Below are positions 5,545-21,653 of a stretch of 64,000 nt of DNA, piece by piece (the stretch's first letter is position 1; every line of letters starts with the position of its first letter). Made by a program: the position numbers and the translations under genes. The notes under the pieces were generated by a model, which searched no databases, had not been told where the DNA came from, and worked only from the letters and a program-made list of their open reading frames with translations. This DNA comes from Candidatus Altiarchaeota archaeon. GTDB taxonomy: Archaea; Altiarchaeota; Altiarchaeia; IMC4; QMZM01. The stretch lies in NCBI GenBank assembly GCA_016931955.1, contig JAFGDV010000012.1, forward strand, positions 50,255-114,254, in the 5' to 3' direction.

Positions 5545-5764
5545 GTTCTGTATCACCACAAAATAAATTGTATATAGTTATATGGAGAGAGATAATAACT
5601 AATCGGGTTTGAATCAATTGCCTTCTTATCCGTACATTTTATATTATATATAATTATTTTCATACAATGTTTATATTTAAGCAATTCAATCCATATATTA
5701 GCATATATCACACACGCTCCAGGTATTTATGCACGAAAATAAAAATAATTTAAAACAAGAGAAC

Positions 5765-8700
5765 ATGCGAAAAACACTCTACTTGATAATAGGCATACTA
5801 ATAACAGTCAGCCTAGCTAACGCACAATGTGGATATTCTGGAACAGGAGACTGGATTATAGATTCTAAGATTGATTGCAAGGACACATCGATTACATTAA
5901 ACGGAAACATACTCATCAACACAGGAGGCTGGCTTAACGCAACCAATGTGTTTTTCACATTCAACAACACTGGTAAAGCCAACGAAACAACAAGAGGCAC
6001 GGCACTTGAAGACGGAGGCAACCTGACTCTTGTGGACTGCCTTTATCAAAGCAACGAACCAGTTGGTGGAACGGATATTGAAGACAACCCAGGCGGTTGG
6101 ACTAACACATGGATCAATGTATGGAATGATGTTGGAAATGCAGACTGTAGGATAATATTGAATAGAACAACCTTCAATGGCATAGGGATGCATCCCTTGA
6201 ACATATTAAATAGTCGCTATGGCATCTACCCTATGGAGGGGCAGATGTGGGTGGACAACTGCACATGCAATAAATCAGTTAACTGTTTCATTTCTACAGC
6301 AGATAGCACAAGAGGGGATAATAGAACAATTCGCTACTTGAAAAACAACAAATTTGAGAACATAAGCACATTCCCCTATGTCTTCCTCTATGATGGAGAC
6401 AGTGAAACAGAATACTTGGAAATAACAGGAAACACCTGGTATGGTAACACATACCGTATGGGGACACTTGATTACACTGAGAAAGTTAAGATATACGACA
6501 ACACCGCAAGCGGCACACCCAACTATGGTTTCAGCAACAACGGAGCAAGTGATGTCTTGATATACAACATGAACATTTCAGGACCGCCAACAGCAGTAGA
6601 GTTAAATTCAGGAAACCATGACTTTGAGATATACAATCTGAATATAACAAACGGCGGAATAGGCTGCAACTACGGCAACCGCAACATAACAATACATGAT
6701 GTAGACGTCACAGGTAAGAAAGCATTTGTAGGAAGCACCGCAGTCGCAGGAAGCCCAAACTACAACAACCACTTCTACAACATGACATACACATTTGTTT
6801 TCGGGGCAGACATAGTAGGCTACCTGATAGCCTACACAGGAGAAAACTCAACAATAGAGGACATCACAATAGTTGGGTCTCCCACAGACCAGACAGCGAT
6901 AACCACAAAACACGCCACAGGAGGGACTGGGGGAAGCGAATACTATGTTAAAAACGTCACATATGAGGACATAAGCATAGACAACATCAACACAGGCATC
7001 CGGATGAAATACTTCAACGACAGCACATTCAGAGACATCAGGATGACCAATGTGAACAGCTACAACATCTACTTCTCAGGGAACAACTACCGAAACAGAT
7101 TCATCAACGTCACACACGACAGCGTTTTCTTCGACAACAACGACGACGTATTCGACTACTACAATTATCTTTCGGTGAATGTGACCGGTGACAACGTGTG
7201 GGGGATAGAAGTGTATAATAGGACTAGCGATTTGTTAACGAGCGGATCCACGACGACGGGGAAAGTCGAGAAACTAGAAGTCAACGAATTCAAGCAGACC
7301 AAGGTGGCGACAAATTTACAGTATCCGCACACGATCAAGGTAACAGGATTGGTGGCGGACACGGACTACAACGTCACAGTAAACGGAGCATACAGTCAAA
7401 CAAAAAAGACAGACGCACTGGGAGTACTGACATTCCAAGAGAATATAACAGACAACACACGGATGACACTGAAGGCGACAACAGACGTATACCCGCCATT
7501 CATCACGATCATTACACCACAGAACACAAAATACGCGCAAGGAGCGCTGACGGCGGAGATCAGCTTAGACGAAGACGGAGACTGGTGCGCATACTCACTA
7601 GAAGGAAACCCCAACAAAACAATGACAGGAGCAGGAAAAAGCTGGACAACACTGCTCACAGAACTCGCGAAGATAGAGTACAGCATAAAGTTCTGGTGCA
7701 ATGACACACAAGGACACATGGGGTCATCCGAGAAACGATATTTTACGATAGTAGAATGCCTGGCAGACGGAGACTGCGGCATAGGACAATACTGCAACAC
7801 AGGAGATGAGTGCAAAGACAAAAAAGGAGACGGAGCACCATGCAGTGCAGATAAGGAGTGCACGTCAAATGAATGCTGCCATTCAATATGTAGAAGTGTG
7901 TGCCCCTACTGCGGAGACGGATACTGCGACGGAGGAGAAACATGCGGAACATGCCCGCTAGACTGCACCTGCGCACCCGGAGGCGGACCAGGAGGAGGAA
8001 CAGGAGGATCCGGAGGAGCCATCGGGACAGGAGGAATAGGGGCGAACTGCTTCGACGGGATAATGAACCAGGGAGAAACCGGAATAGACTGCGGAGGACC
8101 CTGCAAGGCATGTCCTAGTTGCATGGACGGGATACTGAACCAAGGCGAGACCGGAGTAGACTGCGGAGGACCCTGCGGAGAATGCGCCATCGGAGCGACA
8201 GCGGCAAGCTGCTATGACAGAATAAAGAACCAGGGAGAACAAGGAATAGACTGCGGAGGACCCTGCAAGGCATGCAAGACAGGGAACATATTACAGGAGA
8301 AATTCATGATAGGGTTAAATCATCCCAGTGAAGTGGAAGCAGGAGACCACTACACAGTAGGAGTGACAGTAGAGAATACAGGAGACACCACACTAAAAGA
8401 ACTGAACGTGAAAGTAGGCAGCCAGATAAAGACAACCGACTTAGATCTGACAGAGAAAAAGACAGTGGAATTCCAACTAACCGCGCCACGAGAAGAAGGA
8501 GAATACATGATAAAAGTAGAAGCATACAATGGAACCCTAAGAGAAGAAGAACAAACAAAGATACAAGTAAAGCCAACCCCGCTGACGCTGAGAGCCACAA
8601 CAGTAGACAACACAACATATATTATAACGCAGACCAATTACACCGACGCAGTGATAGAATTAATAATCACAAGAGAAAACAAAACAGTATACTGGGACTA

Positions 8701-8920
8701 CATAAGCGAAGAAGAACACATAACACAGATACAGGCAGGAAACTACCAAGTACAAGCCAACCTCAGAGTAGACGGAAAAACACTGAAAACCAAACAAATA
8801 ACGCCGACCACAGAAAAAGAAACAATACCCGAAGACATGACCACGATACTGGCAATACCGTTACTGATAATAAACCTCGCTTTATTAGGAAGCATCACCA
8901 AAAAAATAATAAGAAAATAA
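5765..8920 (+). CDS. Large secreted/surface protein: signal peptide, beta-helix-like Asn/Thr-rich region, Ig-like domain, Cys-rich repeats, CARDB-like domain, C-terminal TM anchor
   Basis: MRKTLYLIIGILITVSLANA signal; three C.DGI.NQGE.G.DCGGPC-type repeats; V.VENTG motif; terminal TM followed by basic tail. Confidence 0.75.
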   Translation: MRKTLYLIIGILITVSLANAQCGYSGTGDWIIDSKIDCKDTSITLNGNILINTGGWLNATNVFFTFNNTGKANETTRGTALEDGGNLTLVDCLYQSNEPVGGTDIEDNPGGWTNTWINVWNDVGNADCRIILNRTTFNGIGMHPLNILNSRYGIYPMEGQMWVDNCTCNKSVNCFISTADSTRGDNRTIRYLKNNKFENISTFPYVFLYDGDSETEYLEITGNTWYGNTYRMGTLDYTEKVKIYDNTASGTPNYGFSNNGASDVLIYNMNISGPPTAVELNSGNHDFEIYNLNITNGGIGCNYGNRNITIHDVDVTGKKAFVGSTAVAGSPNYNNHFYNMTYTFVFGADIVGYLIAYTGENSTIEDITIVGSPTDQTAITTKHATGGTGGSEYYVKNVTYEDISIDNINTGIRMKYFNDSTFRDIRMTNVNSYNIYFSGNNYRNRFINVTHDSVFFDNNDDVFDYYNYLSVNVTGDNVWGIEVYNRTSDLLTSGSTTTGKVEKLEVNEFKQTKVATNLQYPHTIKVTGLVADTDYNVTVNGAYSQTKKTDALGVLTFQENITDNTRMTLKATTDVYPPFITIITPQNTKYAQGALTAEISLDEDGDWCAYSLEGNPNKTMTGAGKSWTTLLTELAKIEYSIKFWCNDTQGHMGSSEKRYFTIVECLADGDCGIGQYCNTGDECKDKKGDGAPCSADKECTSNECCHSICRSVCPYCGDGYCDGGETCGTCPLDCTCAPGGGPGGGTGGSGGAIGTGGIGANCFDGIMNQGETGIDCGGPCKACPSCMDGILNQGETGVDCGGPCGECAIGATAASCYDRIKNQGEQGIDCGGPCKACKTGNILQEKFMIGLNHPSEVEAGDHYTVGVTVENTGDTTLKELNVKVGSQIKTTDLDLTEKKTVEFQLTAPREEGEYMIKVEAYNGTLREEEQTKIQVKPTPLTLRATTVDNTTYIITQTNYTDAVIELIITRENKTVYWDYISEEEHITQIQAGNYQVQANLRVDGKTLKTKQITPTTEKETIPEDMTTILAIPLLIINLALLGSITKKIIRK
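8048..8277 (+). repeat. Three coding Cys-rich repeats (...NQGE.G.DCGGPC..C)
   Basis: gactgcggaggaccctgc occurs three times. Confidence 0.85.
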
Positions 8921-8921
8921 A

Positions 8922-9173
8922 ATGTACATACCCTACCTAAACATAGACATAGACCTAATATGGCTGCTAGTGCTAGGAAACATGGGAATGATACTAGCAC
9001 TAATACTGATACTAATAGAACTACAACAAGTAAGAAAACTGAGGAAAGCATTCGAACACATGTTCGGACACTACGAAGAACTAATGGAAAAAGACACCAA
9101 AATATTCTGGAAAGAACTGGAAGAACTAAAATACATAATAGGAGCAAACAACAACAAATCAACTGAACAATGA
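8922..9173 (+). CDS. Small membrane protein (83 aa), hypothetical
   Basis: One TM segment followed by a helical tail; starts 1 bp after the upstream stop. Confidence 0.6.
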   Translation: MYIPYLNIDIDLIWLLVLGNMGMILALILILIELQQVRKLRKAFEHMFGHYEELMEKDTKIFWKELEELKYIIGANNNKSTEQ

Positions 9174-9179
9174 AGCATA

Positions 9180-9287
9180 CAATCTGACATAGGATACGTG
9201 TTCTACGAGATCGAGCTTGCTCTTACCGCCCCCATGCGGTCGACGAAGGGGATGGAAATAGCCGCAGACCAGGATCTCTAAGAGGAT
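9180..9287 (-). pseudogene. Relic copy 1 of the 3' end of the DPM1-like gene (matches 15624-15751)
   Basis: Minus strand reads PFVDR-(frameshift)-GGKSKLDLVEHVSYVR versus TFIDREGGKSKLNLGEHLSYVR in the intact gene. Confidence 0.85.
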
Positions 9288-9342
9288 AGGGATACAGCCG
9301 CCTGAGACACTAAAAGCCCACCGAAACATCTGATAACGGAGT

Positions 9343-9395
9343 TGTTACTTTCTGGTGTAGCATTTTTAAACATATGTTACGTTATAATGTAACAT
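9343..9395. promoter_or_regulatory. Putative operator: two TGTTAC-N8-GTA(G/A)CA palindromes 32 bp apart
   Basis: tgttactttctggtgtagca at 9343 and tgttacgttataatgtaaca at 9375, abutting the ATG. Confidence 0.6.
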
Positions 9396-10674
9396 GGAAC
9401 TACGTAAATTAGCCGAAGCCAACCCCTGGTGGCAGACCAAAAAAGTACCACAAAACCTCCGAGGACGCGACAGACCCAAATACAGACTACTCCTAAAATC
9501 AATCACACAAAAAGAAGTCACAATAATAACCGGAGTCAGACGCTCAGGAAAAAGCACACTAATGTACCAGACCATAGACAACCTACTCAAAGAAAAAACA
9601 CCCCCAAAACAGATACTATTCGTCAACCTAGAAGACCCAAGACTCACAAACGACACACTAGACGACATATACGAAGCATACAGAAGCGGAATCAACCCCG
9701 ACCAGAAGGCACACATCTTCCTAGACGAAATACACCGAAGAGAAAACTGGGAAAAATGGGTCAAAAGACACTACGACCTCGGCACAGACTGCAAATTCAC
9801 AATCTCAGGATCATGCTCATACCTCCTGAAAAAAGAATACTCAACACTACTCACAGGCAGAAACCTCACCTTCGAAGTATTCCCCCTAAGCTTCCAAGAA
9901 TACCTCACCTTCAAAGGCATCAACTTAGACGCCGAAGCACTGGAAAAAGACATCCTCCTAGAGAAACAGAGACACGAAATCCAGAAGGCGATGAACGAAT
10001 ACATGGAAGAAGGAGGCTTCCCAGACGCGTTCTTCAAAGAAGAAGACTTCAAGAGACTGCTCCTAACACAATACTTCGACGACATAATATACAAAGACAT
10101 CGTAGACCGCCACGAACTAAACAGCCGCAAAACAAGAGACCTTGCACTATACCTCGCATCCAACATCACCTCCCCACTATCCCTCAGAAACATCAGAAAC
10201 ACGCTCGGACTATCCTACGAATCAATAAAAGACTACATCACATACTACGCCGAAGCATTCCTCTTCTTCACAGTCGAACACTTCTCCTACTCCCTCAAAG
10301 AACAGAAGACACGCCCCTCAAAAGCATACTGCATAGACAACGGCCTCCGAAACGCAGTAAGCTTCAAGTTCACAAAAGACGACGGAAAACTAGCCGAAAA
10401 CCTAGCCTACCTCCACCTAAGACAAAACAAAGACGACATATACTACTGGAAAGACAAAAACGAAGTAGACTTCATAACAAAAAACCCCGACCACACACTA
10501 ACCGCCATAAACGTCACATACACAGATGAAGTGGACGAAAGAGAAATAAAGTCGCTCAAAGAATTCAAACAAAAACACAAAAAAACACAAGAACTCATAA
10601 TAATCACAAAAAACACCCAAAAAACACAAGAAGAAATCAAGTACATACCACTATGGAAGTGGCTGCTAGAATAG
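9394..10674 (+). CDS. AAA+ ATPase, AAA_14/DUF4143 family (copy 1)
   Basis: NPWW, GVRRSGKS Walker A, FLDEI Walker B, LTGR, PLSF.EY, GGFP, YCIDNG, EVDF. Confidence 0.9.
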   Translation: MELRKLAEANPWWQTKKVPQNLRGRDRPKYRLLLKSITQKEVTIITGVRRSGKSTLMYQTIDNLLKEKTPPKQILFVNLEDPRLTNDTLDDIYEAYRSGINPDQKAHIFLDEIHRRENWEKWVKRHYDLGTDCKFTISGSCSYLLKKEYSTLLTGRNLTFEVFPLSFQEYLTFKGINLDAEALEKDILLEKQRHEIQKAMNEYMEEGGFPDAFFKEEDFKRLLLTQYFDDIIYKDIVDRHELNSRKTRDLALYLASNITSPLSLRNIRNTLGLSYESIKDYITYYAEAFLFFTVEHFSYSLKEQKTRPSKAYCIDNGLRNAVSFKFTKDDGKLAENLAYLHLRQNKDDIYYWKDKNEVDFITKNPDHTLTAINVTYTDEVDEREIKSLKEFKQKHKKTQELIIITKNTQKTQEEIKYIPLWKWLLE

Positions 10675-10690
10675 AGACTAACCCAGATAC

Positions 10691-10732
10691 TCCGAGGTTT
10701 AATTTACATTTGCCGCCCACGCGGTCGACGAA
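10691..10732 (-). pseudogene. Relic copy 2 of the DPM1-like 3' end (matches 15650-15691)
   Basis: Gapless alignment, 30/42 nt; FVDRVGGKCKLNLG versus FIDREGGKSKLNLG. Confidence 0.75.
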
Positions 10733-10787
10733 TAAACAAAATTTGCCGTTACAAGGGCAAAGTTTTAAAAGAAAATTCACCCACAAA

Positions 10788-10830
10788 TGCAATATTTATG
10801 CATAAATATTGCAATAGACTGCAATATTTA
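10788..10830. promoter_or_regulatory. Putative operator: perfect 26-bp palindrome; TGCAATATTTA repeated 32 bp apart
   Basis: tgcaatatttatgcataaatattgca at 10788-10813; tgcaatattta again at 10820. Confidence 0.65.
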
Positions 10831-10854
10831 AATACAACAACCACTATATATAAC

Positions 10855-12180
10855 ATGGACAAAAACACCCTCAGAGCAACAATAATATCACAAAAAAAAG
10901 AAACAAAAAAAATACTAAAACAAGAAAAAATCATAGAAAGAGAACTACAAAAAGAAACAGAAAAACAACTAAAAAACAACCTCATCAAGATCACCACAGG
11001 CGTCAGAAGATGCGGAAAATCAACCCTCGCCCTACAAACACTCCAAGACAAAGAACACGCCTACATCAACTTCGACGACGAAAGACTCTACAAGATCACG
11101 ACAAAAGACCTCGACACAATCCTAGAAACACTATATGAAGTATACGGAAACTTCAAATACCTCCTCCTAGACGAAATACAGAACATACCTGGATGGGAGC
11201 TATACGCAAACAGACTACAAAGACAAGGCCTCAACCTCATAGTAACCGGAAGCAACGCAAAACTACTAAGCAAAGAACTTGCAACACACCTAACAGGAAG
11301 ACACATCACACTTGAACTATACCCCTTCTCCTTCAGAGAATACCTAAGCTACCACAAAATCAGCCCCCAAAAAGAAGACCTACAAATCGCAGAAGGCATC
11401 GGAAAAATCAAAAAACACCTAAGAGACTACATAGAAAAAGGCGGATTCCCCGAAACATACAAAATCAAAGACAACACAAGATACCTAAAAGACCTCTACA
11501 ACTCCATCATAAACCAAGACATCATAAGCAGATACAACATAAAATACGCAAACACGCTAAGAGAGATAATCTCCTACACCATCTCAAACTACGCAAGCCC
11601 AATAACCTACAAAAAAATAAAAAACATATTCGACATAAAAAGCCAACACACAATAAAAAACTACCTCTACTACGCAGAAGAATCATACCTGATAACCCAG
11701 AGCCTACAATACACACACAAAATAAAAGAACAAACACGACTGCCCAAAAAAATCTACGCCATAGACACAGGCCTCATAAAAGCAATAGGATTCAAGGCAT
11801 CAGAAAACACCGGCAGACTAATGGAAAACCTCATCGCAATAGAACTACAGAGAAAAAAAACACAAAACCCCCTCCTAGAAATATACCACTGGAGAGACTA
11901 CCAAAAAAGAGAAGTCGACTTCGCAGTCAAAGAAGGCCTAAAAGTAAAGGAACTAATCCAGGCATGCTACGACATCGAAGACCCAAAAACAAAGGAGAGG
12001 GAAGAAAAAGCATTGATAAAAGCCGGGAAAGAACTCAGATGCAAAAACCTCAAAATAATAACCTGGGACCACGAAGAAACAGGGAGAATAGAGTATATCC
12101 CACTATGGAAGTGGCTGCTGCAGCCGACGGGTTTTGTCCCGGCGACTGAGGAGAATGTAGTGCCTAACCCAACAAATTAG
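10855..12180 (+). CDS. AAA+ ATPase, AAA_14/DUF4143 family (copy 2)
   Basis: GVRRCGKS, LLDEIQ, TGSNA, LTGR, GGFP, YAIDTG, EVDF; start placed at MDKN because the upstream ATG lies inside the palindrome. Confidence 0.9.
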   Translation: MDKNTLRATIISQKKETKKILKQEKIIERELQKETEKQLKNNLIKITTGVRRCGKSTLALQTLQDKEHAYINFDDERLYKITTKDLDTILETLYEVYGNFKYLLLDEIQNIPGWELYANRLQRQGLNLIVTGSNAKLLSKELATHLTGRHITLELYPFSFREYLSYHKISPQKEDLQIAEGIGKIKKHLRDYIEKGGFPETYKIKDNTRYLKDLYNSIINQDIISRYNIKYANTLREIISYTISNYASPITYKKIKNIFDIKSQHTIKNYLYYAEESYLITQSLQYTHKIKEQTRLPKKIYAIDTGLIKAIGFKASENTGRLMENLIAIELQRKKTQNPLLEIYHWRDYQKREVDFAVKEGLKVKELIQACYDIEDPKTKEREEKALIKAGKELRCKNLKIITWDHEETGRIEYIPLWKWLLQPTGFVPATEENVVPNPTN

Positions 12181-12184
12181 GCAC
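12157..12184. repeat. GTAGTGCCTAAC core with inverted partner (GTGCCTAA-N9-TTAGGCAC)
   Basis: Same 12-mer as at 41622, 51826 and 51927. Confidence 0.7.
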
Positions 12185-12219
12185 CAAACCCAAAAAAAAC
12201 ACCCCGAATAGGGGAAAAC

Positions 12220-13542
12220 CTAAGGCAACCCCAATAAAGAGAAAAGCCACGCCGGAATATAATATATTACTATACTATCTGTTCCCCCTCTCCTCAGCTG
12301 ATTCCTCGTCACCAAAACCGCCTCACCTACACCGTATTTTTCGCAGAATTTAGTTAGGCTACGAATGTCTTTCTTGTTAATGTAGGTCTGATACTTGACT
12401 TCGACAGGCAGCAGCCTTTTGTCCGCTAATACAATATCCACCTCATCCTTCTGCGGCGTACGCCAGAAAGATATCTTCTGCAGACTACCCACTATCTGAG
12501 ACTCTATGAGATGACCTGCTATCCCACCACCTTCAAGCATGCTAAAGGGTTGATCCAATAACGCCAACACAATAGATGGGTGGACTATGAACTGTTTCTT
12601 GCTTGCACGCACCTGCTTAGATACGTTGACAGAGTAGTTGTAGGCCACCTTAATCAGAAAAGATTTCTCTAGTAGGCTTACATACTCTGCCGCCTGATTT
12701 CGGTTAATCCTGAGGTTGCCTGCTATGTTCACCAACTCAAAGAGTTGGGCGTTCGCCGCAGCCAGCAGCCTGAGCAATTCGTAGACCACGTTCTCATTCC
12801 CCCTGCTAGCCCGACTTATGTCTTCGACGGTTTTCTCTATCACCGACTCCCGAATATACTTTTTAATGTATTCTTCGTCGTCTTCGTCAAACAGCTCAGG
12901 GAAGGCGCCCCTCTCCAAGTATTGGATGAACAGTTCCATGTATCTAGCCCTATTCGCAGCGAAATGCAGGTCATATTCTCGTATCATGTTTTCGTTCAAG
13001 GCTATCTCGTCCCTAAGACCAAAGTATCTCACAAACTCCCTGAAGGAAAGTACTGGCAGATGAAAGGATAGTATCCTGCCGGCAAGCGTTTCCCTGTATT
13101 TCCTCAGCTCAAGAGACGATGACCCGGAGACAAAAATCTTCAGGTTCTCTTCGGTGTCATAGACAGTCTTAAGGAGATCAGGGAAGTTAGGAAGCTTCTG
13201 CACCTCGTCGAGGAAAAGATACCTCATACCTTTCCCATCAGAAAACTCCAGAAAGTAGTTGATTAGATCCCATGCCACCTCATACCTCTGGAAGTCTATG
13301 TCGTCGAAGGAGATATAGCAGACGTTCTTTTCTTCGGTCTTCACCAGAAGCTTCTTTATCATCTGCTTGAGTAAGACAGTCTTGCCTACGCGCCGCAGAC
13401 CCACGACTGCCAGAATCTGCCTATTTTGACAGTATTTGAGTAGGTCTCCCATGAGGTCTCTCTCAAACTCTGGAGTAGTGAAGTCTTTTTTCTCCCACCA
13501 CGGGTTCTGCCTGAAAAGCAGTCTACTGTGTCTTTCGTCCAT
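12220..13542 (-). CDS. AAA+ ATPase, AAA_14/DUF4143 family (copy 3)
   Basis: NPWW, GLRRVGKT, FLDEVQ, SGSSS, LAGR, GAFP; EVDIV...PVEVK nuclease-like tail. Confidence 0.9.
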   Translation of the reverse strand: MDERHSRLLFRQNPWWEKKDFTTPEFERDLMGDLLKYCQNRQILAVVGLRRVGKTVLLKQMIKKLLVKTEEKNVCYISFDDIDFQRYEVAWDLINYFLEFSDGKGMRYLFLDEVQKLPNFPDLLKTVYDTEENLKIFVSGSSSLELRKYRETLAGRILSFHLPVLSFREFVRYFGLRDEIALNENMIREYDLHFAANRARYMELFIQYLERGAFPELFDEDDEEYIKKYIRESVIEKTVEDISRASRGNENVVYELLRLLAAANAQLFELVNIAGNLRINRNQAAEYVSLLEKSFLIKVAYNYSVNVSKQVRASKKQFIVHPSIVLALLDQPFSMLEGGGIAGHLIESQIVGSLQKISFWRTPQKDEVDIVLADKRLLPVEVKYQTYINKKDIRSLTKFCEKYGVGEAVLVTRNQLRRGGTDSIVIYYIPAWLFSLLGLP

Positions 13543-13576
13543 CGTATTATCTATTAGGAAGAACATCCTTATAAAG

Positions 13577-13631
13577 TTTATGCACTAAAAACGTGCACAA
13601 AATAAAATTTTATGCACAAAAACTGTGCACA
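13577..13631. promoter_or_regulatory. Putative operator: two TGCAC-N7-GTGCA palindromes 32 bp apart
   Basis: tttatgcactaaaaacgtgcaca at 13577 and tttatgcacaaaaactgtgcaca at 13609. Confidence 0.65.
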
Positions 13632-13670
13632 GAATCTAAAAAGCCACAAGATTAAGAACGACGCTATTGA

Positions 13671-13838
13671 TTATCTCCCCAAAAAACCAGGGAAAGCATT
13701 CAAACACTACGAATAAAAAAAGAACTGGAAAAACTGAAACATATAGTCTACATCACAGAAGAAGAAAAAAACTAAAGGCCGAGCTTGCTCTTACCGCCCC
13801 CATGCGGTCGACGAAGGAGATGGAGATGGCCGCAGACC
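13671..13838. repeat. Duplicated junction: relic of the 83-aa ORF tail plus relic copy 3 of the DPM1-like 3' end
   Basis: 13671-13774 aligns with about 15501-15604; 13780-13838 is 56/59 identical to 9212-9270. Confidence 0.85.
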
Positions 13839-13965
13839 CTCAACTGCCCCAGACCCCTTGCCACAGAATCCTCAGACATTATAAGGTACAGATGACAAAA
13901 AACATAGTATTCCATCAGATACAACCAACAATATTTAAACCCAGAAAACAAAAATAAGATAAAAG

Positions 13966-15348
13966 ATGACAATCATCGACTCCCTGAAAGCCCAAAACGA
14001 ATGGTGGAAGACCGGGAAAGTACCCACAGCACTCCTAAAAAAAACCAAAAGAGAAGAATACAAGACAGCAGAAAAACTCCTCAAAGAAGAAAGAATAACC
14101 GCAATAACCGGACCACGCAGAACCGGAAAAACAACCCTCCAATACCAGCTCATACACCACCTCCTCCAAGAAACCGAACCCAACAAGATACTCTACATAT
14201 CCATGGACGACCCATCACTAAGACCCCACACACAAAACCTCCTACAAGAAATACTGGAAACCTACTACAGAGAAATCCTCCTCGAAGAAAAAAGAAACAC
14301 ACAAGTCCACGTCTTCATAGACGAAATACACTTCCACACAAACTGGGAACAATGGCTGAAAAAATACTACGACCAAAGATACCCAATAAAATTCACGATA
14401 ACAAGCTCATCCTCAGCCCACCTATCACAGAAGTCAAAAGAAAGCCTCGTCGGACGAATCATCGAAATACTACTACTCCCCCTAAGCTTCAGAAGCTACC
14501 TCGCCCTCACAGGAAAAAACCAGCTCACAGAACACTACAACAAACTCAGCCTCGAAACAATAGACGCAGACAAAAGATTCCAGCTGCTAAAACACGAAGA
14601 AGAAGCACGGATCATGTTCTCAAAATACCTCCTATACGGAGGACTGCCCGAGTCCATAAAAACAGGAGAAATACACCTATGGCAGGAAAAACTAATATCA
14701 GACGTCCTAAGAAAAGTTATATACAGAGACATCACAGGACTCTACGACGTCAGAACACCCACAAAACTCGAAGACCTCTTCGTCCACCTCACATACAACA
14801 CCAGCAAAACATTCTCATACACCTCCCTCTCCCAAAACCTCGGCATAAGCACAGAAGCCATAATAAACTACACACGCTACCTCCAGGAATCCTACCTCAT
14901 AGGCGAACTACGACTCCACACAAAAAGCATCGAAAAAAGCCTCCGAGCCAACAGAAAATACTTCATAATGGACTGCGGACTACAGAACGCCATAACAAAA
15001 ACCACCGACCTAACCGAAGCCAACACAGGCCCACTAATAGAATCCACAATCGAAAAACACCTCTACGCATACGCCAAAAAAGAAAACCACAACCTACACT
15101 ACTGGAGAGAAAAAGAAGAAGTAGACATAATACTAGACACCAAAAAAAAGACACTACCAATAGAGGTAAAATACAAAAACAAGATAAAAAAAGAAGACAT
15201 GCGAGGACTACTCAAATTCATGGACAAATACAAAACAGACAAAGGATACATGATAACCAAAGACCTCCTCCAAAAACAAAAAATCAACGGAAAAGAAATC
15301 CAACTAATACCAGCATGGCTATTCCTACTAGCAATACCCGCCGCCTAA
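13966..15348 (+). CDS. AAA+ ATPase, AAA_14/DUF4143 family (copy 4)
   Basis: NEWW, GPRRTGKT, FIDEI, LVGR, GGLP; EVDII...PIEVK. Confidence 0.9.
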   Translation: MTIIDSLKAQNEWWKTGKVPTALLKKTKREEYKTAEKLLKEERITAITGPRRTGKTTLQYQLIHHLLQETEPNKILYISMDDPSLRPHTQNLLQEILETYYREILLEEKRNTQVHVFIDEIHFHTNWEQWLKKYYDQRYPIKFTITSSSSAHLSQKSKESLVGRIIEILLLPLSFRSYLALTGKNQLTEHYNKLSLETIDADKRFQLLKHEEEARIMFSKYLLYGGLPESIKTGEIHLWQEKLISDVLRKVIYRDITGLYDVRTPTKLEDLFVHLTYNTSKTFSYTSLSQNLGISTEAIINYTRYLQESYLIGELRLHTKSIEKSLRANRKYFIMDCGLQNAITKTTDLTEANTGPLIESTIEKHLYAYAKKENHNLHYWREKEEVDIILDTKKKTLPIEVKYKNKIKKEDMRGLLKFMDKYKTDKGYMITKDLLQKQKINGKEIQLIPAWLFLLAIPAA

Positions 15349-15601
15349 AAAAAAAAGACTGAGACAACAGCCTGCTTCTTTCCCGCCTGAACATATAAAA
15401 AGATCACTATTAGCATGATCATGGTTATACAATTCAGAAACCAAGTGACTGAACCCTAAGACCTGAAAGAAATAATAGGAAACAACAACGAATCAGCTTA
15501 TAATCTATCCCCAAAAAAAAACCAGGGAAAGCATTCGAACACTACGAATAAAAAAAGATCCAGGAAAAAACCAGCCTGCATCACAGAAGAAGAAAAAAAA
15601 A

Positions 15602-16318
15602 CTACTTCAGATACAGGCGGAGACAATGCCTGACATAGGATAAGTGTTCTCCGAGATTAAGCTTGCTCTTACCGCCCTCTCGGTCAATGAAAGTGATCGG
15701 GACCTCCTTGACTCGGGAATAGCGGCCGCGAACCAGTATTTCTAAGAGGATCTTGAAGCCGACCGGGTTAAGGACGACGCCGTCAATAACTTCTCTGCGG
15801 AAGAAGAAGAAACCAGAGACCGGATCCCTGACAGAGGTGAGGGGGCGAGCCAAGAGGACAGCACCCCGAGAGGTTAGACGACGACGAAGAGGCCAATTCT
15901 GGATACAACCGCCACGGACATAGCGGCTGCCGACGGAGACATCGGCTTCGCCCCGCAAAATAGGAGCCACCAAAGCAGGAATAGCGTCTAGGGGATGAGA
16001 GAAGTCGGCGTCCATGACGCCAAATATGCCGCCCGAAGCCTGAGAGAAGCCGGCGAGGACGGCAGAGGAAAGACCTAATTTGCCGGAGCGGACGATGATT
16101 TTAAGATCGGGGTAAGGGCTTTGAAGAGAACGGACGACTTCGGCGGAGCCATCTGGGCTGTTGTCGTCTACGATGATCAGTTCACCGCGGAGGTCGTTGC
16201 GGGAAAAAACCTTGAAGAAGGCAGGAATAAGCTTGGATAAGTTCTCGCGTTCATTATAGGTGGGTACGACGACTGAGACCCTGGAGTTCTCCAAGGGAGG
16301 GAAAGAAGTCCTATGCAT
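15602..16318 (-). CDS. Polyprenol-phosphate mannosyltransferase (DPM1-like GT2)
   Basis: PTYNERENL, DDNSPDGS, GLSSA, MDADFSH, GSRY, DPVSGFF, FIDR..G.SK. Confidence 0.9.
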   Translation of the reverse strand: MHRTSFPPLENSRVSVVVPTYNERENLSKLIPAFFKVFSRNDLRGELIIVDDNSPDGSAEVVRSLQSPYPDLKIIVRSGKLGLSSAVLAGFSQASGGIFGVMDADFSHPLDAIPALVAPILRGEADVSVGSRYVRGGCIQNWPLRRRLTSRGAVLLARPLTSVRDPVSGFFFFRREVIDGVVLNPVGFKILLEILVRGRYSRVKEVPITFIDREGGKSKLNLGEHLSYVRHCLRLYLK

Positions 16319-16380
16319 GATAAAGGATATAAACAGATACGGAAATAAATAAGTTTGCTGTTATGAGGTGGGGATAATCT

Positions 16381-16442
16381 ACCCACGGATGCAATAGTTA
16401 TGCATAGATATTGTAATAGACTGCAGTATTTGGATACGATAA
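16381..16442. repeat. Orphan degenerate copy of the AAA copy-2 promoter/operator (10779-10840)
   Basis: acccacggatgcaatagttatgcatagatattgtaatagactgcagtattt versus acccacaaatgcaatatttatgcataaatattgcaatagactgcaatattt. Confidence 0.8.
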
Positions 16443-16479
16443 TAAAAGATCACTGAGGGATAATGGGAGGGGCTGCTAG

Positions 16480-16494
16480 GATAGAGGAGTTGAT
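16480..16494 (+). repeat. Left direct repeat GATAGAGGAGTTGAT flanking the AbiE-like pair (right copy 18428-18442)
   Basis: 15-bp exact match within an imperfect match of about 25 bp. Confidence 0.65.
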
Positions 16495-16562
16495 ACCCCA
16501 GTAGTCGTCGAGGACAAAGGAGAAGAAAGCCCCACGCATTTTACGGAACATACACGGTAATG

Positions 16563-16605
16563 TACTAAAAATAGTAAAAAAAATGATATTTTACTAAAAA
16601 TAGTA
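16563..16605. promoter_or_regulatory. Putative antitoxin operator: TACTAAAAATAGTA twice
   Basis: Identical 14-mers (TACTA-N4-TAGTA) at 16563 and 16592, upstream of the wHTH gene. Confidence 0.6.
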
Positions 16606-16633
16606 TTTATAGGTGAAAAACACATAACATAAC

Positions 16634-17476
16634 ATGCTAGAACTGATCTACGGGACAAAAACAAAGACCAGGATACTGGAAGAGCTCGCAACAGCAGGAA
16701 AACCAAAGACCAGAAAAGAACTAATAGAGCTGACAGGATGCGGCACCAGGGGAGTATACGAGCAGACAGAGGAACTAATAACCCTAGGCATAGTCAAAGA
16801 AACCAAGAAAGGCTGGAAAAAACTAGAGCTAAACCCAGAACACCCACTATACCAGGACATCAAAAACACGGCACTCGCAGCAATAGACTACAAAAAAAAC
16901 CTCATAAAAAACCTCCTCCAGACAATAGACCAAATACTAGAAGACGACTACTATATCGGATTCTACACAGCAGCCACAAAAAAAATCACACCAATCGACT
17001 ACACACCAGAGAAACACGTATACAAGGTACTGGACACAGAATACGAAAAAAAAATAAAGAAAATCAAAACATACGACAAACTAAGGGAAATAGACATACA
17101 AAAAGAGAAAAAAGGGTTGATTAAGGCAGTATTCCTAAAATGCCAGAAAATCCCGGAAGACGTGACAAGAGAAGAAATACAAAACCAGGAAGTGTGGATA
17201 GCAAGCACGGAGAGGGGTATAGTAGAATGCTTCACCCCAGAAAACAAATACTTCACCAGATACGGAAGCTGCCTGGCCCTGCTACAAAACAAAATAGAAA
17301 ACACAATAGACGAAAAACAACTACTGAAAATAGCAGGAGAACTCAACATAAAAAAAGAACTAGTTAAAGTCATGGGCAGCTTCAACCACCACCTCAAAAA
17401 AAGACTATTCAACGCAGAACCCAACACAGAAGAGATCAAAGAAGTCAAACAGGCGATAAACACGGTATTAGGATGA
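16634..17476 (+). CDS. wHTH protein, probable AbiEi-like antitoxin
   Basis: N-terminal HTH-like segment; ASTERGIVEC resembles the AbiEi C-terminal motif; overlaps the start of the AbiEii-like gene. Confidence 0.6.
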   Translation: MLELIYGTKTKTRILEELATAGKPKTRKELIELTGCGTRGVYEQTEELITLGIVKETKKGWKKLELNPEHPLYQDIKNTALAAIDYKKNLIKNLLQTIDQILEDDYYIGFYTAATKKITPIDYTPEKHVYKVLDTEYEKKIKKIKTYDKLREIDIQKEKKGLIKAVFLKCQKIPEDVTREEIQNQEVWIASTERGIVECFTPENKYFTRYGSCLALLQNKIENTIDEKQLLKIAGELNIKKELVKVMGSFNHHLKKRLFNAEPNTEEIKEVKQAINTVLG

Positions 17477-18432
17477 AGACAACATACACGACAGAAGAAA
17501 AAGAAGGGATCCTAGGCATAATAGAAACCTGGGGGAGAGAACAGATAACCCAAGACGTCTTCAGAAAAATACAACTACAGACAGGCATACCTTCAGGACT
17601 GATAGAGACAACATTCTGGCACATAGACACACTCTATCAGCTGAAAAAACTCGAAAAACCACCCATATTCAAAGGAGGAACCTGCGTACAATGCTACATC
17701 CCAGCAGGCCTGCAGAGAGCATCAAACGACCTAGACTTCAATTCAAGGATAGCCAACCCAGCCACCATAAGGGAGCAGATAAAAAAACTAAACAAAAAAC
17801 TGCTAAACAAAGGAAACGCCACACAGATAAAAAAATACGGCGAAAGAATAAGCTATGGAACATTCGACTACCAGCTAAAAGACGAAATATCCGGTGTTAT
17901 AACATTCAACAGGAGAATGCCCTCCCGCCTTGGAGAATACGTCAAAGCAGGCGAACTAGAGGTTCAGGCAAAAAACATGAAAATCCAGGTAAACTACAAA
18001 CACGCCTGGATGCCCGCAATAAAGACGATAGACAAAAAACCAAGATTCTTCATACTCGAACACCAAAAAATGAAAGGATTCACCTACCCAAGCTCAAGCC
18101 TGAACGACCTAATCGCCGACAAAATACTTGCAACAACAAAAGAAACGGGGAGAGAACGATTCAAAGACGTATACGACCTGATGACTCTGTTCATGCAAAA
18201 ATACGAGAAAAAACAGATACTCGAGAAACTGGAGAGGATACTGGAGAAGAAAGGGCAACAACCAGAGACCACGATAAAATCCTCGGCAACGAATATCGGG
18301 AGATTCACAGAAAAAAGCCTCGAAGCACAAGGATTCAAAAGCCTCGTATGCAAAGACGGCAGAAAACTCATAGAAAACTGGGAAACCAACTGCTTAAAGC
18401 TAACAGAGAAGATGAACTCGTTGCTGAGATAG
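17473..18432 (+). CDS. AbiEii/AbiGii-family nucleotidyltransferase toxin
   Basis: FKGGT, RASNDLDF, DKILA and RFKDVYDL motifs. Confidence 0.85.
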   Translation: MKTTYTTEEKEGILGIIETWGREQITQDVFRKIQLQTGIPSGLIETTFWHIDTLYQLKKLEKPPIFKGGTCVQCYIPAGLQRASNDLDFNSRIANPATIREQIKKLNKKLLNKGNATQIKKYGERISYGTFDYQLKDEISGVITFNRRMPSRLGEYVKAGELEVQAKNMKIQVNYKHAWMPAIKTIDKKPRFFILEHQKMKGFTYPSSSLNDLIADKILATTKETGRERFKDVYDLMTLFMQKYEKKQILEKLERILEKKGQQPETTIKSSATNIGRFTEKSLEAQGFKSLVCKDGRKLIENWETNCLKLTEKMNSLLR

Positions 18433-18562
18433 AGGAGTTGATCCCATGGAAGACCCCTTGAGGAGGAGGCTTCTCGATTAATCTTGATTAAAGATCTCAT
18501 GGTATAACCTTTAACTTCAATAGGGAGGTAGGGGTAGGGTGATATGCGTATTTATATACTTA

Positions 18563-18601
18563 TGTTCACTATAGTATACAAAATATGAGGAATTTGTTCA
18601 C
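18563..18601. promoter_or_regulatory. Putative operator: TGTTCAC repeated 32 bp apart
   Basis: tgttcac at 18563 and 18595, downstream of TATA-like tttatata. Confidence 0.5.
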
Positions 18602-18609
18602 CGAATAAG

Positions 18610-19896
18610 ATGGAGCACAGAAAAATCATAATACAATGGAAAGAATACACACCACCGAAGACACAACCCAGAGAAGTGAACATCGACCCCACAACAGACT
18701 TCATCACCACAATAACAGGCCCAAGAAGAGCAGGCAAAACATACCTCTGCTACCAGCTAATGAACCACCTAATAGACAAAGGAACCCCCCGAGAAAACAT
18801 CCTATACGTGAACTTCGAAGACGAAAAACTCATAGGGGCTAAAGCAGCAGACCTCGAAAAACTGATGAACACATTCCAAGAACTAACAGACACCAACCCA
18901 GAACACAACACCTACCTCTTCCTCGACGAAATACAGAACGTCAAAGACTGGGACGCATGGATAAGGAGAATACACGACACCCAAAAAAACGTGAAACTAA
19001 TACTCACAGGCTCATCCTCCAAGATGCTAAGCCGAGAAGTCACAACAAAACTACGCGGCAGAATACTAAACCACGAAGTATACCCCCTAAGCTTCAAAGA
19101 ATACCTCACATGGAAAAACACCCCATACAACCTAAAAACACTAACAGAAAGCAGAGACAGAATCGAAGTAAAAAAACAATACAATGAATACCTGACAAAC
19201 GGAGGCTACCCCACAATAGCACTCAACCAAGCACCCAGAGAACAGATACTCCAAAGCTACTACGAATCAATGATATTCAAGGATGTGGTAGAAAGACACA
19301 ACATCAAAGACGTCAAAAAACTGCGCATACTCGCAAAACTACTATTCGAATCCACATCAAAAGAGATGTCCTACAACAGGCTAGCAAACAAACTCAAATC
19401 CCTCGGATTCACAGCAAGCAAAAACACCATAATAGAACACATCAGCCACTTCGAAGACGCATACCTATTCTTCCAGAACATGAAACACGAGTACTCCATC
19501 ACAAAACGGATGGGTGCGATAAAAAAGATCTACTGCATAGACAACGGACTACTCAACACAGTCAGCTTCAAATTCGCAGAAGACACCGGAAAACTGATGG
19601 AAAACCAAGTCTACATAGAACTAAAACGCAGAAACAAACAAGTCTACTACCACAAAGACAAACACGAATGCGACTTCCTCACACAAGAAAAAAACAAGAT
19701 CACATCAGCCATACAAGTAACCCACACACTAAACGACGAAAACGAAGACCGAGAAATAAACGGCCTACTTGAAGCCATGAGAACCCACAACCTACAAGAT
19801 GGAACCATCCTCACCTTCGAACAAGAAGAGACAAGAAAAAAAGACGACAAAACAATACGGATCACACCAGTCTGGAAGTGGCTGCTGGAGACATGA
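18610..19896 (+). CDS. AAA+ ATPase, AAA_14/DUF4143 family (copy 5)
   Basis: GPRRAGKT, FLDEIQ, TGSSS, LRGR, GGYP, YCIDNG, ECDF. Confidence 0.9.
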   Translation: MEHRKIIIQWKEYTPPKTQPREVNIDPTTDFITTITGPRRAGKTYLCYQLMNHLIDKGTPRENILYVNFEDEKLIGAKAADLEKLMNTFQELTDTNPEHNTYLFLDEIQNVKDWDAWIRRIHDTQKNVKLILTGSSSKMLSREVTTKLRGRILNHEVYPLSFKEYLTWKNTPYNLKTLTESRDRIEVKKQYNEYLTNGGYPTIALNQAPREQILQSYYESMIFKDVVERHNIKDVKKLRILAKLLFESTSKEMSYNRLANKLKSLGFTASKNTIIEHISHFEDAYLFFQNMKHEYSITKRMGAIKKIYCIDNGLLNTVSFKFAEDTGKLMENQVYIELKRRNKQVYYHKDKHECDFLTQEKNKITSAIQVTHTLNDENEDREINGLLEAMRTHNLQDGTILTFEQEETRKKDDKTIRITPVWKWLLET

Positions 19897-19967
19897 GATC
19901 GAAAGAAAAACAGACCAGAGAGTATCTTTGTTGACCAAAATTTATAAATAATGGACAACATAGATGT

Positions 19968-20042
19968 AAAGTGATAACATGGGACCGCGAAGAAAAAGGG
20001 AGAATAGAATACATACCACTATGGAAGTGGCTGCTGGAATAA
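19968..20042 (+). pseudogene. Orphan 3' end of a gene resembling AAA copy 2
   Basis: KVITWDREEKGRIEYIPLWKWLLE* versus KIITWDHEETGRIEYIPLWKWLLQ (12052-12123). Confidence 0.85.
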
Positions 20043-20239
20043 AGAGGTTATTTCATAGATGGCTGCTTGAGGCAGAAAGAGAAGAGCCCAGAAGAGAGCA
20101 AGGTAGTGCCCTGGAAAAGGCAAGATATAAAGGAGGTGAGGGGAAATAGGGGATATAGTAGGGGCTCCGATGAATGCATCCCAACGAGGATAGAGAGAAA
20201 AGCTTTTAATCCCATATCGACAGAATACTTTAAGAGAAG

Positions 20240-20440
20240 ATGAAATGCGCACTGGATAAGGAGGAAGGAATACCAGATAAGAGAAGATGCCCCAAAAAGA
20301 TGCTCAACGGACCATGCGGCGGACAACTAAAGGGAAAATGCGAAGTAAACCCAGGATTAGGGTGCGTGTGGGTGCAGGTATATGAGGAACTCAAGAAGAG
20401 GGGGAAAGAAAAAATACTCAAGGAGCTGTGCATGAGATGA
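20240..20440 (+). CDS. metV: Minimal MetV-like protein (MTHFR C-terminal Cys-rich domain)
   Basis: CPKKMLNGPCGG...GKCEV...CVW; overlaps the start of metF. Confidence 0.75.
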   Translation: MKCALDKEEGIPDKRRCPKKMLNGPCGGQLKGKCEVNPGLGCVWVQVYEELKKRGKEKILKELCMR

Positions 20441-21315: not shown

Positions 21316-21653
21316 GTTTTTTCCATAAGGATCTTTTTGATGATGGGTCTGACCACTGGTATGTCCTCCTTCACGACAAGCCACACCCTCTTAGGGTCCA
21401 TCCCAAAGTAGAAATGGATAGCCTTATCCCTCATACCCGCTATATCCCGCCAAGGCACTTCAGGATGCTTATCCTTCACAGGAGAAGGCACGTTTTTTGC
21501 CGCTTCGCCTATGACCTCGACACATCGGATGACGGCTTATTGAGTCTTCTCATCCCCTAAAAACACGTCATAAGACATATCTCTGATGAATTCCTCGGCA
21601 AGCTCCATGTTCTCCAACATATCCTTCAGATAGATTGACACGTTCCTTTTCAT
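21312..21653 (-). pseudogene. HEPN/DUF86 toxin with in-frame stop (absent from the ORF track)
   Basis: MKRNVSIYLKDMLE...KTQ*AVIRCVEVIGEAAKNVP...PW..IAGMRDKAIHFYFG; TAA at 21539-21537. Confidence 0.85.

Follow-up and report, generated by a model that had tools for sequence, protein, structure and literature searches.

How does a stack of ATPase genes, punctuated by broken ends of the genes beside it, come to be built in a chromosome when no integrase lies nearby? The question is raised by positions ~8.9–20 kb of a 64-kb stretch of DNA (positions 50255–114254 of contig C23, hereafter the window) from G000, a 1.55-Mb metagenome-assembled genome (MAG) of a Candidatus Altiarchaeota archaeon in 46 contigs (92% complete, 0.4% contamination). 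Genes for AAA ATPases with a DUF4143 domain lie here among copies of a junction between a small open reading frame (ORF), S, and a convergent gene for a GT2 glycosyltransferase. With moderate confidence, we interpret this region (the island) as a defence-gene accretion hotspot in the Altiarchaeales chromosome, in which circular cassettes carrying a copy of their own landing site would have inserted side by side. Dispersed direct repeats were concentrated there, with 10 in 8501–17000 relative to 0–3 per segment in the window's remaining 13 overlapping segments of 8.5 kb. The island is bounded on the left by a glycosylation cluster and the gene for a 1063-aa surface protein, and on the right by the core genes for MTHFR and methenyl-H4MPT cyclohydrolase.

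Three copies of the junction between S and the GT2 gene were recognised, namely A (9032–9287), B (13670–13838) and C (15500–15751). The GT2 protein is DPM1/AglJ-like at the family level only, and its gene is convergent with S. The features that make up these copies, together with two further fragments of the same genes, are as follows.

8922–9173, forward strand: S, intact, 83 aa; membrane helix at the N terminus, charged helix at the C terminus; left half of copy A.
9179–9287: GT2-tail relic 1, right half of A; two bases inserted and ~20 nt deleted; 18-nt stretch at 9214–9231.
10690–10732: GT2-tail relic 2, in frame, ~72% identical to the intact tail and more diverged, truncated on both sides.
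13670–13771: S-tail relic, left half of B, with a 12-nt deletion and further indels in common with the relic in copy C.
13780–13838: GT2-tail relic 3, right half of B; 18-nt stretch at 13782–13799; ~45 nt of the extreme gene end missing.
15458–15498: tentative short piece similar to the very end of S (79.5% over 44 nt, E 4e-4; z 8.8).
15500–15599: S-tail relic, left half of C.
15602–16318, reverse strand: GT2 gene, intact; its last ~150 nt are the right half of C; 18-nt stretch at 15660–15677.

Copy A is intact S followed by a relic GT2 tail, copy B is a relic S followed by a relic GT2 tail, and copy C is a relic S followed by the intact GT2 gene. Similarities were judged against 1000 composition-matched shuffles of both partners. 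Relic 1 matched the intact tail at 81.8% over 77 nt (9179–9253 and 15623–15697, E 2e-14, z 30) and relic 3 at 94.9% over 59 nt (56/59; 9212–9270 and 13780–13838, E 6e-21, z 38), the latter with an identical run of 38 nt, and relic 3 matched the intact tail with a z of 13; 0/1000 shuffles reached any of these scores. Relic 2 scored 26 against 15649–15691 of the intact tail, relative to a maximum of 25 in 300 shuffles (z 5.0), and reached a z of 7.3 against relic 1. The S relics of B and C (13681–13771 and 15516–15599) were 83.5% identical to one another (E 2e-21, z 26, 0/1000 shuffles), and their DNA resemblance to the intact S tail was weaker (z 3.8 and 4.2, reached by 7 and 2 of 1000 shuffles), comprising a 17-nt identical run and the in-frame reading KAFEH..YE. 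These results bear out all the sequence-level observations of a preliminary description of this DNA, which had reported three orphan copies of the GT2 (its 'DPM1') 3' end and two copies of the small ORF's tail (both confirmed here, a further piece being tentative). They also confirm the reading FVDR that it had noted in all three GT2 relics, where the intact gene has FIDR, and the 2-nt insertion and internal deletion (~20 nt) that it had seen in both relic 1 and relic 3. The composition-matched shuffles that it had itself proposed never equalled the scores of these two relics.

The lesions in these relics reveal how the copies are related. Relative to the intact GT2 tail, relics 1 and 3 have in common two extra bases and the ~20-nt deletion, and relative to intact S, the relics in B and C have in common the 12-nt deletion and several other indels. 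Since the lesions are common to the relics, these were copied as relics and are not independent wrecks of the resident gene, which is exactly what a circle carrying the junction predicts. Furthermore, the left half of B aligned with the left half of C only and its right half with the right half of A, i.e., copy B is a hybrid of the left half of C and the right half of A. The 18-nt stretch is identical in all three copies and sits inside a 50-nt block where A and C are most alike (46/50). The arrangement of A, B and C is the attL, chimeric att and attR pattern expected where two circular cassettes have inserted in tandem in the Campbell manner.

The DNA between the copies consists of two units that hold the following features.

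9394–10674, forward strand: AAA1, PDC-S01 (AAA_14 and DUF4143); T-ending codons 1%.
10771–10840: P1, with a perfect 26-nt palindrome (10788–10813) and a TATA-like box, upstream of AAA2; z 24 against a second copy, P2.
10855–12180, forward strand: AAA2, PDC-S01; the ORF is readable from 10798.
12220–13566, reverse strand: AAA3, PDC-S01, inverted; ordinary codon composition.
13966–15348, forward strand: AAA4, PDC-S01; T-ending codons 0%.

The start of AAA2 at 10855 is preferred over that at 10798 because it lies downstream of the TATA-like box. All four genes matched Pfam AAA_14 (E 3e-35 to 3e-38) and DUF4143 (E 1e-20 to 1e-29) above the gathering scores, confirming that four AAA/DUF4143 genes lie between the 83-aa ORF and the convergent GT2 gene, as had been described. 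Together with AAA5, which is located to the right of the GT2 gene and whose Pfam matches likewise exceeded the gathering scores, they matched the PADLOC family PDC-S01 (PDLC04787, E 2.6e-57 to 2.4e-118) and are by this match candidate defence genes. PDC-S01 is described as an ATPase fused to a PD-(D/E)XK domain that is abundant, enriched in Archaea and often present in multiple copies, and it ranks as the fourth most common defence candidate in prokaryotes in a 2026 survey (PMC12988326); DUF4143 has been classed in the PD-(D/E)XK superfamily (PMC3424549). The available literature on DUF4143, PDC-S01 and COG1373 with defense yielded nothing on flanking repeats or cassette behaviour. Alignment of the five proteins revealed an invariant Walker A motif (G-x-R-R-x-G-K), a Walker B D-E and K-x-E-x-D.

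Unit E1 (~9232–13799, ~4.6 kb) contains AAA1, relic 2, P1, AAA2 and the inverted AAA3, and unit E2 (~13800–15659, ~1.9 kb) contains AAA4 alone. By reading the sequence, we found TATA-like boxes 20–40 nt upstream of AAA1, AAA2 and AAA4, and on account of these boxes of their own the units are self-contained. E1 and E2 had no DNA similarity beyond the junction copies, and their genes were 25–32% identical. The five AAA paralogues were mutually just 24–37% identical and the junction copies behave as insertion scars carried along, which supports a stack of separately acquired units and not a recent tandem duplication. Relic 2, which is more decayed, looks like what is left of an earlier junction within E1. 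The earlier proposal of a cassette array built by repeated junction-carrying insertions therefore stands as far as separate units with hybrid scars are concerned; its anchoring on the DPM1 tail and its integron-like nature do not, as set out below.

Other repeated elements occur within the units. A search of the AAA upstream regions for mutual likeness found it for P1 and P2 only. The 26-nt palindrome has just two copies in the genome, both in the island (10788–10813 and, degenerate, 16390–16413), and could be an operator for the winged-helix part of the AAA ATPases or a recombinase site. Upstream of the inverted AAA3, at 13575–13635, the inverted repeat TGCAC-N7-GTGCA is present twice. The end of the AAA genes was considered as a DNA-level recombination site and rejected, as relatives encode PLWKWLL with other codons and the conservation is thus at the protein level.

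If the junction is a landing site, which of its two genes is the anchor? The preliminary description had given this role to the DPM1 (GT2) tail. Instead, S proved to be the conserved anchor, as S-tail relics occur in two other genera beside other convergent genes, and the GT2 tail is a local partner in G000 only, the GT2 gene having no close orthologue even in G001 of the same genus. Six S orthologues exhibited proportions of nonsynonymous differences (pN) of 0.06–0.28 relative to synonymous proportions (pS) of 0.41–1.0, with synonymous sites saturated, and on these sequence comparisons S is a real, lineage-restricted gene. It was present in 6/21 other genomes of the family and in 0/27 genomes of the order's other families. 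A total of 29 relatives were found among 5.8 billion proteins, and every named one was a hypothetical protein of Ca. Altiarchaeales.

Arrays punctuated by S were found in two of these relatives. On contig C28 of G002, five copies or tails of S are interspersed with cassettes in both orientations, namely an AbiE-like pair, PIN-like and DUF4258 pairs, a PDC-S01 gene and a small ORF. On contig C88 of G004, which has four S copies, copies of the S tail flank a TumE-type cassette (75% over 194 nt), and copies of the final 120 nt of another neighbouring convergent gene flank a UPF0175-PIN cassette (96%). A 798-nt segment comprising a PIN-like/antitoxin-like pair and the start of an S-like relic was 89% identical between G002 (L150 2408–3205) and G004 (L151 2603–3400), relative to 71% at a housekeeping locus. 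Judged by this difference in identity, which implies that cassettes with an attached S fragment moved between genera, the segment points to a recent cross-genus transfer. The PIN-like/VapB-like pairs of G002:C28 and G004:C88 were annotated by eye, as were a 317-aa epimerase-like and a 429-aa dehydrogenase-like gene of G004:C88, and a KaiC-like ORF and a 95-aa ORF (6534–6821) of L150.

Searches beyond these arrays returned little. Junction DNA was found among 49 genomes of the order in G000 itself and otherwise as one 31-nt match at chance level. The same-genus genome G001 (73% complete) had no S and no DNA synteny with either flank of the island, and MTHFR loci of relatives located at the protein level end at contig edges or lack the island. 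Metagenome contigs with a GT2 protein were at best 52–54% identical, and AAA, S or AbiE lay near 0/80 of the loci kept. Viral contigs had no match to a 26-nt relic pattern, AAA1 or AAA4; in a search of genome contigs S alone gave no match, and the S alignment recovered the five family contigs already known.

Are such scars peculiar to S, or do they accompany PDC-S01 genes in general? We examined 28 PDC-S01 loci of relatives with 1.5-kb flanks, of which 18 were kept after 10 were dropped with a flank of less than 500 nt. A direct repeat between the upstream and downstream flanks (29–178 nt, 75–100% identity) was found at 9/18 loci. By comparison, no such repeat was found at the control loci (0/23 in total), i.e., 0/14 loci of a conserved 521-aa housekeeping gene (18 fetched, 4 dropped for short flanks) and 0/9 GT2 homologues (11 fetched, 2 at contig ends left out). 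A one-sided Fisher test, calculated by hand, gave p ~1.4e-4, which overstates the evidence since the genomes are kin and not independent. Of the nine positives, L116 and L127 involve the 3' end of an adjacent intact ORF, L134 is an S array and L135 involves part of an AAA paralogue next to it; of the rest, two are within small ORFs and three are intergenic. From locus to locus, the bracketing repeats come from different genes and have no common core, which argues against one site-specific enzyme.

PDC-S01 genes of the family are often located at the ends of contigs or grouped in twos to fives, such as those in G000 (C11:265–2694, C5:977–1138 and C46:32422–33624) and in relatives (G010:C24, G015:C96, G003:C28 and G033:C94). 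The copy on C46 of G000 is bracketed by a 40-nt repeat (87.5% identical), and a third copy of this repeat lies 1.9 kb further on.

What process would leave these scars? In the explanation that we favour, holding the reading as a whole with middling confidence, small self-contained cassettes, each with one to three PDC-S01 genes and a promoter of its own, would enter as circular DNA, and each circle would carry a decayed ~300-bp copy of the landing junction, namely an S tail abutting a convergent GT2 tail. One reciprocal crossover between the circle and the chromosomal junction, at or near the 18-nt stretch in the GT2 tail, would insert the circle (Campbell-type) and duplicate the junction, with S and GT2 both staying intact. 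Two such insertions in tandem would yield A (attL-like), E1, B (chimeric), E2 and C (attR-like). The crossover would be made by the general homologous recombination of the host acting on the carried homology and not by a cassette-specific integrase, and selection would keep only those insertions that leave the flanking genes whole, which would explain why the scars are 3' ends of genes. The hybrid junction itself argues for a reciprocal crossover between a circle and the chromosome, as a linear fragment entering by two crossovers cannot duplicate its own target. We infer the circular intermediates, the order of events and the enzyme; host homologous recombination is favoured because targets and repeat lengths vary, no linked enzyme or remnant was found, and the bias towards gene ends is explained by selection.

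Campbell-type insertion-duplication is the textbook outcome for a non-replicating circle that carries a gene fragment. As in the island, one crossover duplicates the segment on both sides, and only gene-end fragments leave an intact gene. Within a limited literature search, we know of no description of homology-driven circle insertion as a natural builder of defence-gene stacks. Campbell-type insertion is known as a laboratory tool, and recombination by Int-pTN3 in Thermococcales has been presented as a cause of inversions (PMC5495485).

The main rival explanation retains the same tandem accretion and replaces the host machinery by a site-specific recombinase acting in trans on integrase-less, cis-mobilizable (CIME-like) cassettes; we consider it possible and rather doubtful. 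The enzyme could be a tyrosine recombinase encoded elsewhere in the MAG, one on an unassembled piece, or a low-specificity integrase of the pTN3 kind. The attL/chimeric att/attR pattern fits this explanation, as does an identical 18-nt stretch in a 50-nt block at 92% identity. Streptococcal tandem accretion offers a precedent with chimeric internal att sites and decayed integrase-less partners (PMC5704250), and Int-pTN3 is reported to recombine any homologous pair down to 104 bp (PMC5495485).

Six-frame profile searches of the whole MAG, reading through stops, indicated that one tyrosine recombinase does exist, with PF00589 matched on contig C38 only, nowhere in the window, and no integrase remnant in the island. 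The enzyme is encoded by an ORF of 403 aa immediately downstream of tRNA-Cys (C38:51049–52456), matched XerA structures weakly (E 2e-6) and is probably the integrase of an integrated element. Its position beside tRNA-Cys, the usual mark of a tRNA-targeting integrase, and the weak XerA match both speak against a role in the island. Moreover, the repeats elsewhere come from different genes and have no core, such that several specificities would be needed, and an integrase remnant is lacking in the island. PF00239, PF07282, PF01867, PF01609, PF00665 and PF00078 (serine recombinase, TnpB, Cas1, DDE_Tnp_1, rve and reverse transcriptase) were not found in the 92%-complete MAG. These family searches agree with the preliminary description that the 64-kb window holds no recombinase or transposase, and the trans-acting tyrosine or serine recombinase that it had suggested looking for in the genome came down to the tyrosine enzyme on C38 beside tRNA-Cys, with no serine enzyme. 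No tRNA genes were found in the window, and an Rfam scan of 5000–21500 gave one sub-threshold match alone (E 0.89).

A second rival does without circles and draws in part on the right-hand part of the island, beyond the GT2 gene. The preliminary description had ended the island at 15751; it is in fact longer, reaching ~20.05 kb, and additionally includes a putative AbiE pair, AAA5 and two AAA 3' relics, as follows.

16373–16442: P2, second copy of the palindrome-bearing region; z 24 against P1.
16463–16486: AAA1-type gene-end relic of 24 nt, ~20 nt past P2; z 6.1.
16634–17476, forward strand: AbiEi-like, 280 aa; weak PADLOC match (E 5e-4), no Pfam match.
17473–18432, forward strand: AbiEii; Pfam E 2.2e-16, above the cut-off.
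18610–19896, forward strand: AAA5, PDC-S01.
19968–20045: AAA1/AAA2-type 3'-end relic of 78 nt; right edge of the island.

The 78-nt relic was 87% identical over 69 nt to the AAA2 end (z 31) and 94% identical over 36 nt to the AAA1 end (z 18). P2 and the 24-nt relic together look like a cassette that has lost the body of its ORF. Given P2 with its AAA-tail piece and the AAA1/AAA2-type 3' fragment, fragments of gene 3' ends are a general litter of the locus. Two further candidates were rejected, namely a GT2 relic after the AAA-tail relic at 16487–16640 (z 0.4) and a remnant AAA2-like promoter and start at 19897–19975 (z 0.3). Beyond S, the ORF list of 8.9–20.4 kb held just AAA, GT2 and AbiE genes.

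In this second explanation, unequal crossing-over or replication slippage would have duplicated the junction in situ, and the content between the copies would later have been replaced by ordinary recombination with DNA of other strains, with the junction copies serving as flanking homology. Unequal crossing-over between A and C in an ancestor with a single insert gives exactly the hybrid B, the junction copies are usable as homology arms for later exchange, and the relics at 16373–16486 and 19968–20045 indicate that deletions and replacements do occur in the island. However, a first insertion is needed anyway, and the units are predicted to have been identical initially, whereas E1 and E2 are without DNA similarity outside the junctions and their genes are, as noted, only distantly alike. 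Nor does it account for repeats that individually bracket 9/18 single PDC-S01 genes elsewhere, and we consider it unlikely.

The enrichment of flanking repeats at PDC-S01 genes, and the multi-copy state of these genes in the family, would also be expected if the PDC-S01 proteins, as an ATPase with a PD-(D/E)XK nuclease, mobilised their own genes in a homing- or transposition-like manner. The assignment of DUF4143 to the PD-(D/E)XK superfamily (PMC3424549) and weak matches to Hjc and Mrr_cat are in keeping with such activity. Nonetheless, we regard this as very improbable, since cassettes lacking an AAA gene (TumE-type and UPF0175-PIN) are bracketed alike in G004:C88, the repeats are 29–194 nt long and derived from the target, unlike a fixed target-site duplication, and homing leaves no duplication.

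Could the stack instead be an artefact of assembly, in which E1 (9232–13799) is a free 4.6-kb circle, or comes from another strain, and was threaded into the contig through the 38-nt repeat? In the probable source run, three unitig-level contigs tile the locus and end exactly in the 38-nt identical repeat (9220–9241 and 13788–13809), and this graph fits a chromosome plus a circle equally well. However, the three pieces had near-equal depth (38.3, 39.7 and 41.0), flat across the locus, the four flanks of the repeat are distinct, and an assembler word of more than 38 nt resolves it. Four joints were listed among the run contigs (a skip beside 21 nt, two brief backward jumps and one to a foreign contig that has 12 mismatches), none of which links relic to relic or skips a cassette, although contigs cannot show rare variants and thus carry no information on excision. 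We consider an artefact highly unlikely, and even if it were real, E1 would be the predicted circle with a hybrid junction, which would support the mobile-cassette reading. Lastly, a true integron or integrase-less attC array (CALIN), for which speak the cassette-like array of short accessory units and the report of integrons and integrase-less attC clusters in archaeal MAGs (10.1101/2022.02.06.479319, in whose main text 'Altiarchae' is absent), has a negligible probability, and with it falls the integron-like hotspot of the preliminary description, since there is no IntI, cassettes with TATA-like boxes of their own lie in mixed orientation (AAA3 being inverted), the repeats are copies of gene tails and not imperfect palindromes, and the junction single strands, with four regions folded on both strands as DNA against 200 shuffles each, fold no better than shuffles and thus have no attC-like fold (8 folds, z -1.77 to +1.36).

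Several findings weigh against insertion of circles by homologous recombination. The MAG is incomplete, and a recombinase may sit on an unassembled piece. Among the assembled contigs of the probable source run, we saw neither a circular form nor an empty site nor a population variant. The carried homology is ~80–92% identical to the resident junction and would be a poor substrate for homologous recombination, an objection that is eased if the insertions happened long ago or came from donors that were then more similar. Copies A and C are most identical in the 50-nt block (46/50) and less so on either side of it, and a site-specific core would look alike. Gene conversion between relics 4.5 kb apart could mimic their common lesions. 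With regard to the family-wide survey, only two positives and the S arrays are clearly duplications of gene tails, three of the repeats are intergenic and could be regulatory, and the statistic rests on related genomes with conserved genes as controls.

How does the island compare with known systems? The accretion islands related to ICESt1 and ICESt3 of Streptococcus, with their CIMEs, are alike in inserting at a gene 3' end with the target left intact, in their end repeats and chimeric att sites, and in their integrase-less units (PMC5704250). Compared to these, the units described here are small (1.9–4.6 kb, one to three genes) and retain nothing of an earlier integrase or transfer module. 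Their repeats are not a short exact core; they copy the tails of two convergent genes at length and imperfectly. A partner element with a cognate integrase was not found, the targets vary by locus and the host is an archaeon. In the tycheposon islands of Prochlorococcus, successive insertions at the same site likewise push older ones outward with partial target copies between them, degenerate remnants accumulate, and the cargo includes defence genes (10.1101/2020.12.28.424599). However, tycheposons have tyrosine recombinases of their own and use tRNA genes as targets, with att motifs of ~40 nt, whereas here no recombinase is linked and the targets are tails of protein-coding genes. Integrons and CALINs, among them those reported from Archaea (10.1101/2022.02.06.479319), are alike in collecting small accessory cassettes at one platform, and toxin–antitoxin or defence cargo is common in the arrays of the relatives of G000; they differ in that the island has no IntI, attI or attC fold, and its repeats are decayed copies of neighbouring genes with cassettes in either orientation. 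Overall, the arrangement works like tandem accretion or tycheposon islands, yet is a member of neither, since we found neither a recombinase nor a tRNA target nor a short exact core.

The genes of the island raise a further question through their base composition. T-ending codons were nearly absent in S, AAA1, AAA2, AAA4, AAA5 and the AbiE pair (37/2437 pooled codons, 1.5%), with GAC:GAT at 114:3, TTC:TTT at 76:1, CAC:CAT at 55:0 and Leu CTN at 270 relative to 7 TTR. G-ending codons made up just 282/2437, of which 71 were ATG or TGG. AAA3, the GT2 gene and several intergenic stretches had ordinary composition. This A/C-rich pattern on the sense strand covers ~27 kb of the genome in 11 patches, which mostly hold nucleotidyltransferase, HEPN, PIN, AbiE, YhcG and PDC-S01 genes; patches are found at the following sites.

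Window: 8922–12180, 13966–15348 and 16634–19896.
C23: 12–26 kb.
C40: 5–8 kb.
C17: 0–3 kb.
C15 and C39.

Third-position AT skew (plus strand) of C23 was -0.3 to -0.96 over 0–28 kb and +0.2 to +0.99 over 52–83 kb, and such domains, which have one sign for genes of both orientations, include ~2–33 kb of the window and C40:0.8–11 kb. Skews of adjacent genes on opposite strands were correlated (r 0.43, n 459). The skew is thus partly regional and strand-specific and not gene-specific. A mirror class is also present, which includes a thermosome gene with 4% A-ending codons, and an epimerase-like gene on the minus strand of G004:C88 had T3 of 0.50 and G3 of 0.39. Orthologues of S were A/C-ending in G000 and G004, in contrast to G-ending in G002, G011 and G017, which indicates that the bias is derived, by G-to-A and T-to-C changes on the sense strand. 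Deamination of the complementary strand while single-stranded, avoidance of palindromes and U-poor mRNA are ideas that might account for it. No reverse transcriptase that would point to a retro-element source was found in the 92%-complete MAG, and the examined part of the literature listed for Altiarchae and skew held no title on strand bias.

Within the window, plus-strand AT skew flips at 33000–34000, being positive at 2–33 kb and negative at 34–43 kb. The left-hand neighbour of S illustrates the change in composition.

5729–8920, forward strand: surface protein, 1063 aa, with beta-helix, CARDB and Cys-rich repeats.

Along this gene, T content falls from 0.22 to 0.13 and AT skew rises from +0.26 to +0.51 towards S, as a gradient and not a step. 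The gene also contains a 3-copy internal repeat (8003–8274); its stop lies 1 nt ahead of the S start, and a homologue of the surface protein is encoded near the S copies of G002:C28. The skewed composition makes long stop-free frames that are not genes (9429–10529, 14001–15362, 17691–18461 and G000:C40:4699–5181), including alternative frames of AAA genes and an antisense frame in the thermosome gene, such that ORF lists over-call.

Taken together, these observations allow a bolder conjecture, which we rate as improbable in its combined form, of an 'integron without integrase' in Altiarchaeales, wherein circles with small defence and toxin–antitoxin cassettes, each bearing a decayed junction copy as its homology, would hop between strains and genera and be stacked beside S by general recombination, and the saturating G-to-A and T-to-C bias of the sense strand could be the footprint of their repeated single-stranded passage, with deamination of the complementary strand. 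If both the cassette route and the deamination footprint hold, this would be a new route of cassette capture with a built-in mutational signature.

Defence islands are usually ascribed to integrase-bearing mobile elements or left unexplained. In this archaeon, the scars are legible, and they suggest circles that insert via a carried copy of their landing site with no dedicated enzyme in sight; like scars bracket half of the PDC-S01 genes examined in the family. The dearth of T-ending codons is a separate anomaly that could reveal a mutational process acting unequally on the two DNA strands of these archaea. If circles that carry homology are the vehicle, they would explain how defence genes turn over in genomes that are poor in transposases and integrases.

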